In this document: positions 17,654 to 23,637 of the stretch, piece after piece
Position numbering within the stretch: the first letter of the stretch is position 1
Layout of the letters: each line of letters opens with the position of its first letter
Assembly: GCF_000236165.1 (NCBI RefSeq)
Contig: NZ_CM001373.1
Coordinates: 397,677 to 421,676, forward strand
DNA length: 24,000 nt
From: Fluoribacter dumoffii NY 23
GTDB taxonomy: Bacteria > Pseudomonadota > Gammaproteobacteria > Legionellales > Legionellaceae
Reading direction: 5' to 3'
Translations under genes and position numbers: made by a program
The notes under the pieces: generated by a model
What the model was told of the DNA's origin: nothing
The model's input: the letters and a program-made list of their open reading frames with translations, nothing else
The model's database searches: none

Positions 17654-18203
17654 TTTTCACTCCAAAATATCGTAAATTTTTGTTTAAATTTTAACCCAAT
17701 GGGTTGCGTTATATAACAATATTTTTGTTTTTTTACGTATATTTAACAAATTATATTATCAAAAGTTACAGAAAGGTTGATGATTATTAAGAGCACACCA
17801 TTTTTTCAATACATTACTGAGTTTCCAATGCAGGCAGAAAAACATGTTAAAATTATGGAAAAGAAAATGCAATATTGAAGTTTCGGAAGAAGTCCAGCCG
17901 TATTTTTGCAATTAACTTTGAAGGTTTAGTTCTAGCATCTCCAAGCCTGATAATCACCAATCAAATTTTGAATCTTCGTCATACGATATACCTTAATTTG
18001 CCAATTTATTTGTTGATGCCGAGCTACTGATCTAGATCGTCTGTTTCTACTGCTCGGACCATATACGTGATGACACCTATCTGCATTTCTTTTTCGCACG
18101 TAATTTTTTACGGAGGTTTGAACAAGGTGAATGTCCTTCATACTACTAGCCGGATAGCGGGTATAATAACGCGACATTTTTGACTTTATAACAGCATGGA
18201 TCC

Positions 18204-18858
18204 TCAGTGGTTGTGCTGCATCTTTGAGACACAGATGAAGCTTCTTAAACAACCCGCAATCGAACCTGGATGCTCTTCTTGGACGGTATTTGATTGGTTT
18301 GTAGTTGCATCATACATGCATTTGTAATTCATGGCTGCGAAAATACCCAAAAGTTCGTTGGTAATGTTGAAGGCCGTTATTAAATCGCTTTCTTCATAAC
18401 TATCTAACCAAGAGGAAACACAGAGCCGCTGTAATGTTTGATACTGAAAGTCATCTGGCTTCATATTATAGAAATAAGTCAGGTTCCATAAACAAGTATT
18501 TAGAGAGAAAAATGGATGGCCAATCACTGTTTCTCCCCAGTCAATAATGCTTAGCTCCCCTGTTTTTTTGGAAACTAGGATATTGTTATCCTGAAAATCG
18601 CAATGATTGATGGTTTCAGGGATCTTGTACTGTGACAGTCGTTCACATAATTCTACACAGAAATCATAAGCTTCATTTAGCGTAGTTATTTCTTTTTGAG
18701 ATAAGCCATCAGCAACTAATAGCTCCGTTTCTTGAATAAGCTCGCGGTACAACTATTGAATGGGCTGGTTCGACTATTTTTTGAACGGAAACCAGCCTAC
18801 AATCATTAGATTCCAGATAATCCACTGCCCATTGAATAGCTGCATCATTATTTTTCAT
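18204..18858 (-). pseudogene. APH/choline-kinase-type phosphotransferase, disrupted (N-lobe deleted and frameshifted)
   Basis: The C-lobe ORF (18204-18752) carries the catalytic loop INHCDFQDNNIL and the IIDWGETVIGHPFF motif. A separate 49-codon frame starts at the ATG at 18858 and overlaps the MazG stop (ATGA). It encodes a typical kinase N-terminus (MKNNDAAIQWAVDYLESNDCRLVSVQKIVEPAHSIV) and then stops. The two pieces are in different frames, and the joined length is roughly 100 aa short of a normal N-lobe. Confidence 0.6.
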
Positions 18859-22550: not shown

Positions 22551-22964
22551 TTAGCCTTTGCTTTTGATAAATGTATCGTGAGATATGAATTGAGATCCTG
22601 GGCCTTCAGTAAAGCTAGACATTTGATGTGCAATAATTGCAATTGTATCAATTTTCTCTTTATTTGAATTAATATGCCCTGTCAGTGTAACCACGGAACC
22701 ACATGTTGGGTAGTTAACACTGAAAGTTATGGCAGTCCCATCAATATAACCAATGATTGGTCTTGCTAAGCCAATTACATCCTGACATTCCTTGGAGGCA
22801 ACAGAAGTTGTAAAGGTCCCTGTTAGAGAATTTTGTTTATTAAAATTCAGTTCTAGCGTTGAACCACGCGTATTTTGATAAGTTATAGTGTTTTCTGCAA
22901 ATGCTATATGACTTGCTAATGATAAACTCATCATGACTACACAAGTTCTAATGTTTAATTTCAT
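22551..22964 (-). CDS. Secreted avidin/streptavidin-family beta-barrel protein (divergent ligand pocket)
   Basis: Signal peptide MKLNIRTCVVMMSLSLASHIAFA. The mature region aligns with streptavidin landmarks: YQNTRGSTL vs WYNQLGSTF, LTGTFTTSV vs LTGTYESAV, ITFSVNY vs LGWTVAW, and ISHDTFIKS vs VGHDTFTKV. GGGAG lies 9 nt upstream of the ATG. Confidence 0.75.
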   Translation of the reverse strand: MKLNIRTCVVMMSLSLASHIAFAENTITYQNTRGSTLELNFNKQNSLTGTFTTSVASKECQDVIGLARPIIGYIDGTAITFSVNYPTCGSVVTLTGHINSNKEKIDTIAIIAHQMSSFTEGPGSQFISHDTFIKSKG

Positions 22965-23061
22965 ATTCTTTAACTCCCATTTGTTTATTAATAAATTTAT
23001 AACCTAGTGTTGTAGGCAGAGTTATTTTAAGGAGTGGTGAAATAATTTTAACTTCGTGAAA

Positions 23062-23637
23062 TCACGGATACACACGTGAAAATTGAGCTATTAATTCCGC
23101 ACGCGTTTTAACACTTAATTTTTGTTTCGAATTATTAATATGGGCTTCAACAGTTCTTGGAGAAATACTTAATTTCTTTGCTATTTGTTTATCAGTATAA
23201 CCATCAGATAGTACCGATAATATTTCGTACTCCCTGGGAGTTAAGGCCTTTATAATGTTCGATTGAGGTAATTCAATACTAAAGCCAACAAGGCCAATTA
23301 TATTGAGTCCTTTATCAAATAGAGGACTCTTCTTACTGATTATATTAACAATAGTTCCATCATGACGTAATATTTGTTCATAAGCACTTAAATCCTCCCC
23401 ATTTTCAAATAACATTTGATCATTCTTTCTAAGTTGATCTGCATAATGGTGCCATACAAAATGATGGTCTTGCTTATGATAAATTTCGCTAAGCGATTGA
23501 AATCCTGCTGATTTGCTAATAAAAAAACCATTTCCCCAGAGATAACATCCGTTCAAATTTTTTACGAAAATTGCGAAATTTAAATCTTGGTAGGCATGAA
23601 CTGGCAATGATTCTAAATACAATATCTGTTGCGCCAT
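23062..23637 (-). CDS. LuxR-family transcriptional regulator with N-terminal PAS-like sensor domain
   Basis: C-terminal HTH motif LTPREYEILSVLSDGYTDKQIAKKLSISPRTVEAHINN (LuxR/FixJ type). The N-terminal ~120 aa have a PAS-like pattern (NGCYLWGNGFF...LFENGE...HDGTIVNIISKKSPLFDKGLNIIGLVGF). Confidence 0.88.
   Translation of the reverse strand: MAQQILYLESLPVHAYQDLNFAIFVKNLNGCYLWGNGFFISKSAGFQSLSEIYHKQDHHFVWHHYADQLRKNDQMLFENGEDLSAYEQILRHDGTIVNIISKKSPLFDKGLNIIGLVGFSIELPQSNIIKALTPREYEILSVLSDGYTDKQIAKKLSISPRTVEAHINNSKQKLSVKTRAELIAQFSRVYP

Follow-up and report, generated by a model that had tools for sequence, protein, structure and literature searches.

A tryptophan-free avidin-fold protein and its neighbouring PAS-LuxR regulator in Fluoribacter dumoffii NY 23

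The subject of this analysis is a 24,000-nucleotide stretch of the Fluoribacter dumoffii NY 23 genome (NCBI RefSeq assembly GCF_000236165.1, contig NZ_CM001373.1, positions 397,677 to 421,676 of the forward strand; hereafter, the window, with coordinates counted from its first letter), and in particular a gene for an avidin-fold protein that lacks tryptophan, together with the adjoining gene for a PAS-LuxR regulator. The window is AT-rich (38% GC), and the nearest homologues of the two products are those of Legionella pneumophila (95% identity for the avidin-fold protein and 98% for the regulator). The avidin-fold protein is of the same family as the “Legavidins,” a clade named by Laitinen et al. 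2021, BMC Ecol Evol (PMC8033661), with which it has in common the motif FTTAVASKxCxxxxGxxRP...YPxCG, and is accordingly called legavidin below. The features on which the analysis centers are the following.

22551..22964, minus strand: legavidin gene, encoding the 137-amino-acid (aa) precursor of a Trp-less avidin-fold beta-barrel (ATG start, stop codon included)
22896..22964, minus strand: predicted signal peptide, residues 1-23, MKLNIRTCVVMMSLSLASHIAFA, with putative cleavage after AFA
22758..22808, minus strand: L3,4 loop block T53-P69, TSVASKECQDVIGLARP, with K58, C60 and R68 (alignment A1)
23024..23051, minus strand: promoter-like site of the legavidin gene, TTAAAA, 16-nt spacer, TAAAAT (consensus scan)
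23052..23069, no strand assigned: 18-bp palindromic box, a candidate operator, minus strand ATCCGTGATTTCACGAAG, core CGTGAnnTCACG (junction alignment)
23062..23637, minus strand: PAS-LuxR (VqmA-like) one-component regulator, 191 aa (GerE helix-turn-helix, structural model, Foldseek)

The legavidin barrel and its altered biotin pocket

Membership of the protein in the avidin superfamily is secure. The Pfam Avidin profile (PF01382; gathering cut-off, 24 bits) matched it with 35.7 bits (E = 1.2e-8) over positions 5-115 of 116, and profile-profile comparison against 14 verified avidins using hhalign yielded a probability of 98.3% (E = 1.7e-14). The best PDB sequence matches found by phmmer were bradavidin (4bbo/2y32, E ~4e-7) and shwanavidin (5e-6), followed by the weaker matches of rhizavidin and streptavidin (E ~1e-3). 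An AlphaFold2 (AF2) model of legavidin, based on 23 family sequences, contains eight strands, with a short helix formed by part of loop L3,4, and has a predicted local distance difference test score (pLDDT) of 80.8. Its best Foldseek matches were wilavidin, rhizavidin, core-bradavidin and shwanavidin, with probability 1.0; target-normalised template modelling scores were 0.73-0.79 for the top five and mostly 0.64-0.81 for the best 50 PDB matches listed, which are avidins throughout. A sub-threshold Pfam match to V-set_CD47 was disregarded. An earlier note on this DNA had described the product as a secreted avidin/streptavidin homologue with a candidate disulfide and had named alignment to PF01382 and a structural model as checks; both were run, and the assignment to the avidin-family barrel holds in each of them.

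Both by sequence and by structure, the closest matches are avidins of the rhizavidin/shwanavidin/bradavidin type (PDB 3EW1/3EW2, 3SZH-J, 2Y32/4BBO, 4GGR), which resemble the window protein in having a short L4,5 loop, in lacking a Trp120 equivalent (with the exception of bradavidin I) and in carrying cysteines in the same L3,4 and L5,6 columns; bradavidin II, in addition, has Phe at the position of Tyr43, as legavidin does. They differ in that they keep W92, W108 and W or F at position 79 and bind biotin, whereas the window protein has Leu, Ala and Tyr at these positions, and in that the L3,4 loop of the window protein is 3 residues longer, with a short helix modelled there. Streptavidin and chicken avidin have in common with the window protein the eight-stranded barrel, the GHDTF-like C-terminal strand and a signal peptide, but are only 27-29% identical to it, and the comparison exposes the loss of the four pocket Trp along with the replacement of Tyr43 by Phe and of Thr90 by Val.

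The precursor begins with K2 and R6 in the n-region, followed by a hydrophobic core and A-F-A at positions -3 to -1, after which the chain continues with EN. The position of the signal peptide is conserved throughout the family (alignment A1), and residues 6-17 form a low-confidence helix in the AF2 model. The n, h and c regions and the A-x-A site thus agree with the proposed secretion and point to Sec-type export, leaving a mature protein of 114 aa, 12.3 kDa and pI 6.3 (computed). The cysteines C60 (in SKECQ) and C88 (in PTCGS), both invariant in the clade (alignment A1), align with the paired Cys of rhizavidin, hoefavidin, shwanavidin and the bradavidins and may accordingly form the disulfide, joining L3,4 to L5,6, for which they had been singled out. 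The block around C60, T53-P69 (TAVASKECQxxIGxxRP), is conserved more strongly than any other part of the clade alignment, with 10 of its 17 positions invariant, including K58, Q61 and R68 among the conserved residues, and 3 of the 17 nearly so; the short helix is modelled at residues 58-63, and the mean pLDDT is 84 for residues 51-60 and 90 for residues 61-70. Among canonical avidins, the L3,4 loop differs from protein to protein (MAFFT L-INS-i).

The residues of the biotin site were mapped by phmmer, by MAFFT L-INS-i alignment with 11 verified avidins and by hhalign profile-profile alignment, with identical results. A 173-sequence MAFFT alignment misregisters the W79 column, placing F opposite W70 of chicken avidin, so that the W79 position was mapped solely from MAFFT L-INS-i and hhalign. 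The correspondences are as follows.

Streptavidin N23: legavidin N31
Streptavidin S27: legavidin S35
Streptavidin Y43: legavidin F51
Streptavidin S45: legavidin T53
Streptavidin N49: legavidin S57
Streptavidin W79: legavidin Y85
Streptavidin S88: legavidin S90
Streptavidin T90: legavidin V92
Streptavidin W92: legavidin L94
Streptavidin W108: legavidin A109
Streptavidin W120: legavidin P122
Streptavidin D128: legavidin D130

The residue assignments of the earlier note were reproduced in these alignments, both for the polar residues described as kept (Asn23, Ser27 and Asp128) and for the replacement of Tyr43, Trp79, Trp92 and Trp108 by Phe, Tyr, Leu and Ala; as it had also stated, no Trp stands at the Trp120 position. 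Five of the eight positions of the streptavidin hydrogen-bond network with biotin are kept or conservatively kept (N31, S35, T53, S90, D130), and three are changed (Y43 to F, T90 to V, N49 to S). At positions 79, 92, 108 and 120, the window legavidin has no Trp and one aromatic residue, and members of its clade have 0-1 Trp and 1-2 aromatics, compared to 2-4 Trp and at least 3 aromatics in each of the 11 verified avidins. The window protein contains no Trp at all, an outcome with a probability of ~0.25 for 114 residues at the local Trp frequency of 1.2%; the absence of Trp is therefore unremarkable for this genome and extreme only against the avidin family. The structural aromatics remain aromatic (W21 to Y29, W75 to F81, F130 to F132; MAFFT L-INS-i and hhalign), and the loss of aromatics is therefore specific to positions that contact the ligand. 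Within the clade, position 108 is occupied by A, S, G or T and position 92 by L, I, V or F, and F51, T53, V55 and Y85 are invariant or nearly so, with D130 kept in most members; F51, T53 and V55 are inward-facing pocket residues.

The family is small, comprising 23 clusters at 90% identity in a word-indexed search and 164 representatives at E ≤ 1e-3 among 1.84 billion in an exhaustive search. Genomic homologues were found only in Legionella, Tatlockia, metagenome-assembled genomes (MAGs) of Coxiellaceae and of unclassified gammaproteobacteria, with further members on metagenome contigs. Nearly all close homologues are devoid of Trp in the mature part, W108/W120 are retained by more distant relatives, and the remotest ones appear canonical. 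The mature window legavidin is 50-52% identical to LEGI_ANIS and LEGI_PNEU, 39% identical to LEGI_MASS and at most 37% identical to any verified avidin. Pairwise ratios of nonsynonymous to synonymous substitution rates (dN/dS) against four orthologues range from 0.04 to 0.26 and are typically 0.1-0.2; given these values and the 10 of 17 invariant positions of the L3,4 block, the gene is functional and under purifying selection. Four large proteins (P0049, P0053, P0061 and P0094, 1900-3800 aa) match profile positions ~16-54, that is, beta1-beta3, 14-17 times each and may consist of avidin-like half-barrel repeats or be spurious matches on repeats.

The family is thus already known, and what the residue-level loss of Trp contradicts is its sole published assessment. 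In the literature searched, “legavidin” occurs only in PMC8033661, and no biotin-binding measurement was found for any legavidin; that paper contains no biochemistry and makes no mention of the missing aromatic box, a link to a regulator, an operator-like box or paralogues without a signal peptide. The mobile two-gene module, the candidate operator and the cytoplasmic paralogues described below appear to be undescribed in the literature searched. Loss of pocket residues has a precedent in the avidin-like domain of fibropellin and in the “Metavidins,” where substitutions affect pocket residues, key Trp among them, and biotin binding, according to PMC8033661, is absent or doubted. In fibropellin, a domain of an extracellular matrix protein, unlike legavidin, Trp gives way to the bulky charged residues Lys and Arg, whereas the small or aliphatic replacements in legavidin would enlarge the cavity rather than fill it.

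The PAS-LuxR regulator and a candidate operator

The gene immediately upstream encodes, in agreement with the earlier note, a PAS-LuxR regulator. Its LuxR/GerE helix-turn-helix (HTH) was identified with Pfam (E = 1.2e-17), and the PAS fold, for which Pfam gave a sub-threshold PAS_4 match, by structural comparison: the AF2 model (pLDDT 88.7) consists of a five-stranded PAS-like sheet followed by four helices, and VqmA was the best full-length Foldseek match (E = 2.7e-13), ahead of EL222 (7e-11) and then many PAS/LOV domains. A LOV-type photoreceptor, considered because of the EL222 match, was rejected since the Cys of the NCRFLQ-like motif is not conserved in alignment A4. Judging from the model, the PAS domain probably senses a small-molecule signal. 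VqmA is the PAS-HTH receptor of the Vibrio autoinducer DPO and acts at an 18-bp palindrome upstream of a single adjacent target gene. The regulator has the architecture of VqmA of Vibrio cholerae (PDB 6IDE, 6UGL), with an N-terminal PAS domain and a C-terminal LuxR-type HTH, but the two are only ~20-23% identical, their operator sequences differ, and the candidate target is a gene for an avidin-fold protein, compared to the small RNA VqmR for VqmA. Nothing linking VqmA-like regulators, Legionella and avidins was found in the literature searched.

An orthologue of the regulator lies directly upstream of legavidin in at least 10 loci (the window element, L001, L002, L005, L017, L018, L023, L026, L027 and L029), the hosts being variants of an integrative conjugative element (ICE), L. 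pneumophila subsp. fraseri, L. santicrucis, Coxiellaceae and Legionella MAGs, and two plasmids. Reverse lookup from LuxR homologues located an avidin gene next to the regulator in four of five cases, the exception being Tatlockia. The identities of the two proteins fall in step, as listed below, and therefore indicate long co-inheritance.

Window and L001: LuxR 82%, avidin 80%
Window and L002: LuxR 71%, avidin 62%
Window and L005: LuxR 59%, avidin 56%
Window and L017: LuxR 57%, avidin 46%
Window and L018: LuxR 52%, avidin 47%
L017 and L018: LuxR 71%, avidin 72%

The palindromic box, with the family consensus ATCCGT-N6-ACGGAT, overlaps the LuxR stop codon and is present in one copy, in the same place, in every fetched LuxR-bearing locus; in L029/L030 it takes the variant form CCCCGT-N6-ACGGGG, which is again symmetric. 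Its center lies ~31 nt upstream of the -10 element TAAAAT (23029-23024) and ~43 nt upstream of the predicted transcription start, and the spacing between the box and a TATAAT-like hexamer is essentially fixed in eight aligned loci. Class II activators classically bind at such a position, near -43, as LuxR does on the lux box. In the 347 kb of fetched loci, 25 sites score at least 10/12, 20 of them directly upstream of legavidin or of its replacement in Tatlockia, where the box precedes an AMP-binding gene; three of these 20 belong to loci without LuxR (L020, 12/12; L006, 11/12; L012, 10/12). In L020 and L006, the box is 73-74 nt from the legavidin ATG, the same distance as in loci with LuxR, and in L020 it lies between divergently oriented genes, with no gene of the same direction ahead of it. 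A terminator scan of the window did not call the box; in L024, a run of T follows the palindrome. Because the box occurs in LuxR-less loci, keeps a fixed spacing, recurs in Tatlockia and varies symmetrically in L029, an operator is the more probable interpretation, ahead of a terminator hairpin or a side effect of the end of the coding sequence. It is consistent with this arrangement that the PAS-LuxR protein binds the box and activates transcription of legavidin, expression of which looks inducible.

In the Tatlockia MAGs (L024/L025, 3501-5372), a 69%-identical PAS-LuxR, preceded by an APH-family kinase, and a perfect ATCCGTGATTTTACGGAT box are followed by a 410-aa AMP-binding enzyme, and the regulator-plus-box cassette seems to drive interchangeable output genes. 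Two further observations concern the regulator gene. In Legionella santicrucis (L002, 7366-7932), PAS-LuxR ends at residue 161 owing to an apparent 1-nt frameshift within the HTH region, with the downstream frame, the box and legavidin intact, which may reflect a decaying regulator or an error of the draft assembly. On a metagenomic Legionellales contig (L029/L030, 2228-2989), a 253-aa fusion of a shikimate-kinase-like domain with a LuxR HTH is encoded immediately upstream of the PAS-LuxR-legavidin-APH string.

Mobile-element context and neighbouring genes

Legavidin is cargo of an F-type ICE and of plasmids. The 95%-identical allele of L. pneumophila genomes lies in the cargo region of an ICE, in which TraC, TraU, TraG_N, a coupling protein and AcaB are followed by LuxR and the avidin gene and, past the latter, by a convergent MsbA-like ABC exporter, GNAT, MazG, APH, integrases and ArdA. 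This gene order recurs in the window, which additionally contains inserted segments and, further left, a polyketide synthase (PKS) cluster; the legavidin of the window belongs to the sub-branch carried on the L. pneumophila ICE. Paralogues with ~46% identity were located by a protein-mode search on plasmids of L. anisa (138 kb) and L. adelaidensis (189 kb), and a DNA-level plasmid search with the 3.5-kb window region returned no match. The plasmid paralogues are 114 aa long and begin at beta-strand 1 behind a good Shine-Dalgarno sequence, without a signal peptide, so that they are presumably cytoplasmic.

Neighbours were annotated at ~20 independent legavidin loci. The convergent ABC exporter was considered as a partner of the module and rejected, being found in the same ICE only, apart from a weak partial match 6 kb off in L. 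santicrucis. APH-family kinases occur near the module in four arrangements, only two of which are homologous (38% identity), the others representing unrelated subfamilies; their recurrence is thus a hint only. A PdxH-like gene of the pyridoxamine-5'-phosphate-oxidase family adjoins legavidin in L. erythra, L. rubrilucens and the L. anisa plasmid (L007, 7322-7918; L009, 7325-7921; L017, 6797-7321); the plasmid and chromosomal versions are 47% identical, and the three loci amount to two independent occurrences.

In the window itself, an APH-family gene (17932-18858, minus strand) has lost ~110 internal codons in comparison with its intact 324-aa counterpart in L013, with tblastn covering only residues 1-36 and 147-319, and is probably a pseudogene. 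Between this remnant and the integrases, the segment 14593-17653 (minus strand) encodes a 722-aa beta-lactamase-fold protein and a 234-aa protein without a Pfam match, both absent from the otherwise collinear cargo of L013; a related beta-lactamase-fold gene is found near legavidin in L023 and L027. Further left (15-8495, plus strand), translations point to a polyketide-like cluster that includes a 1814-aa multidomain PKS with ketosynthase, acyl-carrier-protein-like and methyltransferase-like regions, the reading frame of which may extend leftward past the window boundary; next come genes for a membrane fatty-acid-desaturase-like protein, a hydrolase of the metallo-beta-lactamase fold and a FabD-like acyltransferase. 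A divergent O-methyltransferase-like gene, also read from its translation, lies at 8454-9374.

Possible functions and significance

The reading that we favor, with a probability of about 0.55, is that legavidin is a barrel that is expressed inducibly, binds a ligand in a remodelled pocket, does not hold biotin tightly and is the output of a mobile two-gene module. The protein would be a Sec-exported, disulfide-braced, eight-stranded barrel of the Legionellales-restricted legavidin branch in which the polar floor of the pocket (N31, S35, T53, S90, D130) has been kept, the aromatic walls have been replaced (F51, Y85, L94, A109, P122) and the lid loop L3,4 has turned into the most conserved part. 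A VqmA-like PAS-LuxR dimer would bind the 18-bp palindrome upstream of the barrel gene and, upon binding of a small molecule in the PAS domain, switch on its transcription; the barrel would then bind a small molecule reversibly in the periplasm or the medium. The ligand would more probably be a different or loosely held amphipathic compound, possibly bearing a carboxylate, than biotin at sub-nanomolar affinity. Taken by themselves, the odds that the barrel binds a ligand different from biotin are in our estimate slightly short of even, and it is quite improbable that the barrel has no small-molecule ligand.

The proposal of the earlier note that biotin binding is weak or absent, or that another ligand is bound, is a reasonable one on the sequence evidence, and it gains strength because the Trp-less state is fixed in the near clade under purifying selection, because all verified avidins aligned hold at least two of the four Trp, and because of the signal-peptide-less paralogues and the apparently inducible expression. 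At least in the plasmid branch, tight binding is unlikely because a femtomolar biotin trap in the cytoplasm would be self-harming.

Several points weigh against the favored reading. The five retained hydrogen-bonding positions of the streptavidin site include the ureido-binding polar ones, and most of the single substitutions are each found in some verified avidin in the MAFFT L-INS-i alignment (Y43F in bradavidin II, W79F in the bradavidins, W92F in chicken avidin and W108Y in burkavidin, with W120 absent from rhizavidin-type avidins). In the latter, the disulfide between L3,4 and L5,6 enables tight biotin binding without W120, and in legavidin an aromatic side chain from another position may enter the pocket. 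Adjacent LuxR is absent in 12 of 18 legavidin-anchored loci, mostly chromosomal, the neighbours of which are mutually unrelated; neighbours that might relate to a ligand are inconsistent as well; and the palindrome, half of which is also under coding constraint through its overlap with the LuxR stop codon, could instead be a weak terminator hairpin. Finally, the sole published opinion, that of PMC8033661, is that legavidins “look potent biotin binders.”

Among the other explanations, the most probable, although still rather unlikely in our view, is that legavidin binds biotin, dethiobiotin or an analogue weakly and reversibly, as a periplasmic vitamin buffer or uptake aid. The conservation of the ureido-recognising polar residues without the affinity-boosting aromatic box fits such a role, in which the invariant lid residues K58 and R68 could pair with the valerate carboxylate, and the PdxH-like vitamin-B6 gene beside legavidin in L007, L009 and L017 hints at a vitamin context. 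However, no biotin transporter or bio gene was present among the ~20 legavidin loci annotated, the rest of the cargo (APH kinases, GNAT, the ABC exporter, the beta-lactamase-fold protein) appears related to xenobiotics rather than vitamins, and the family-wide invariance of the N23 and S27 equivalents may be structural, reflecting the beta1-beta2 turn, and not ligand contact.

We consider it unlikely that legavidin is a true avidin, secreted to scavenge biotin with high affinity or to act as an antibiotic-like defence protein, with the missing Trp offset by aliphatic or Phe/Tyr side chains and by an L3,4 lid locked through the disulfide. The published opinion just quoted is joined on this side by the equivalents of N23, S27, S45 (as T), S88 and D128, by the alignment of the Cys pair with that of rhizavidin and shwanavidin, by the verified binder bradavidin II, which has F at 43, F at 79 and K at 120, and by the signal peptide, which many bacterial avidins possess. 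Yet no verified avidin in the alignment lacks both the W92/F and the W108/Y equivalents, and legavidin has lost T90 and the Y43 hydroxyl as well; its paralogues without a signal peptide, if tight, would starve their own host of biotin; the gene is apparently inducible rather than constitutive; and biotin genes are absent among the neighbours examined.

Least probable, and in our view very unlikely, is a barrel without a small-molecule ligand that serves protein-protein contacts, as has been proposed for the avidin-like domain of fibropellin, or a structural role in the periplasm, next to a palindrome that is merely the terminator hairpin of LuxR: the concentration of the strongest conservation on surface loop L3,4, a possible interaction surface, the variation of position 108 among small residues, as if it were not a critical contact, and the run of T after the palindrome in L024 speak for it, but the L020 box has no co-directional gene to terminate, the distance to the -10 hexamer is fixed, the palindrome of the window was not called in the terminator scan, and the pocket residues F51, T53, V55 and Y85 are invariant or nearly so, with D130 mostly kept.

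Returning to the favored reading of an inducible barrel with a remodelled pocket, we suggest, as a speculation that is more doubtful than that reading itself, that PAS-LuxR and legavidin constitute a mobile “sense-and-sequester” module in which the barrel captures the very molecule sensed by the receptor, such as a signal, an antibiotic or a metabolite of the host or amoeba, possibly an organic acid. The barrel, secreted or, on plasmids, cytoplasmic, would hold this molecule in its enlarged, Trp-free pocket. The swap of legavidin for an AMP-binding enzyme in Tatlockia is consistent with two ways to dispose of one carboxylate-bearing inducer. If true, legavidin would be the first member of the avidin family whose natural ligand is not biotin, and it would be analogous to the bacterial lipocalins that capture antibiotics.

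In biology and biotechnology, avidins are treated as synonymous with ultra-tight binding of biotin. Here, a whole clade that is conserved, selected and horizontally spread by ICEs and plasmids in Legionella and its relatives has dropped the aromatic box and kept the fold. If binding has been re-tuned or re-targeted, the clade would show the extent to which the specificity of the avidin scaffold drifts in nature, would provide a natural starting point for engineering binders of molecules other than biotin and would revise the published view of legavidins as potent binders of biotin. The conserved coupling of the barrel to a VqmA-like receptor and a candidate operator points to an unrecognised circuit for signalling or response in the mobile gene pool of an important pathogen.

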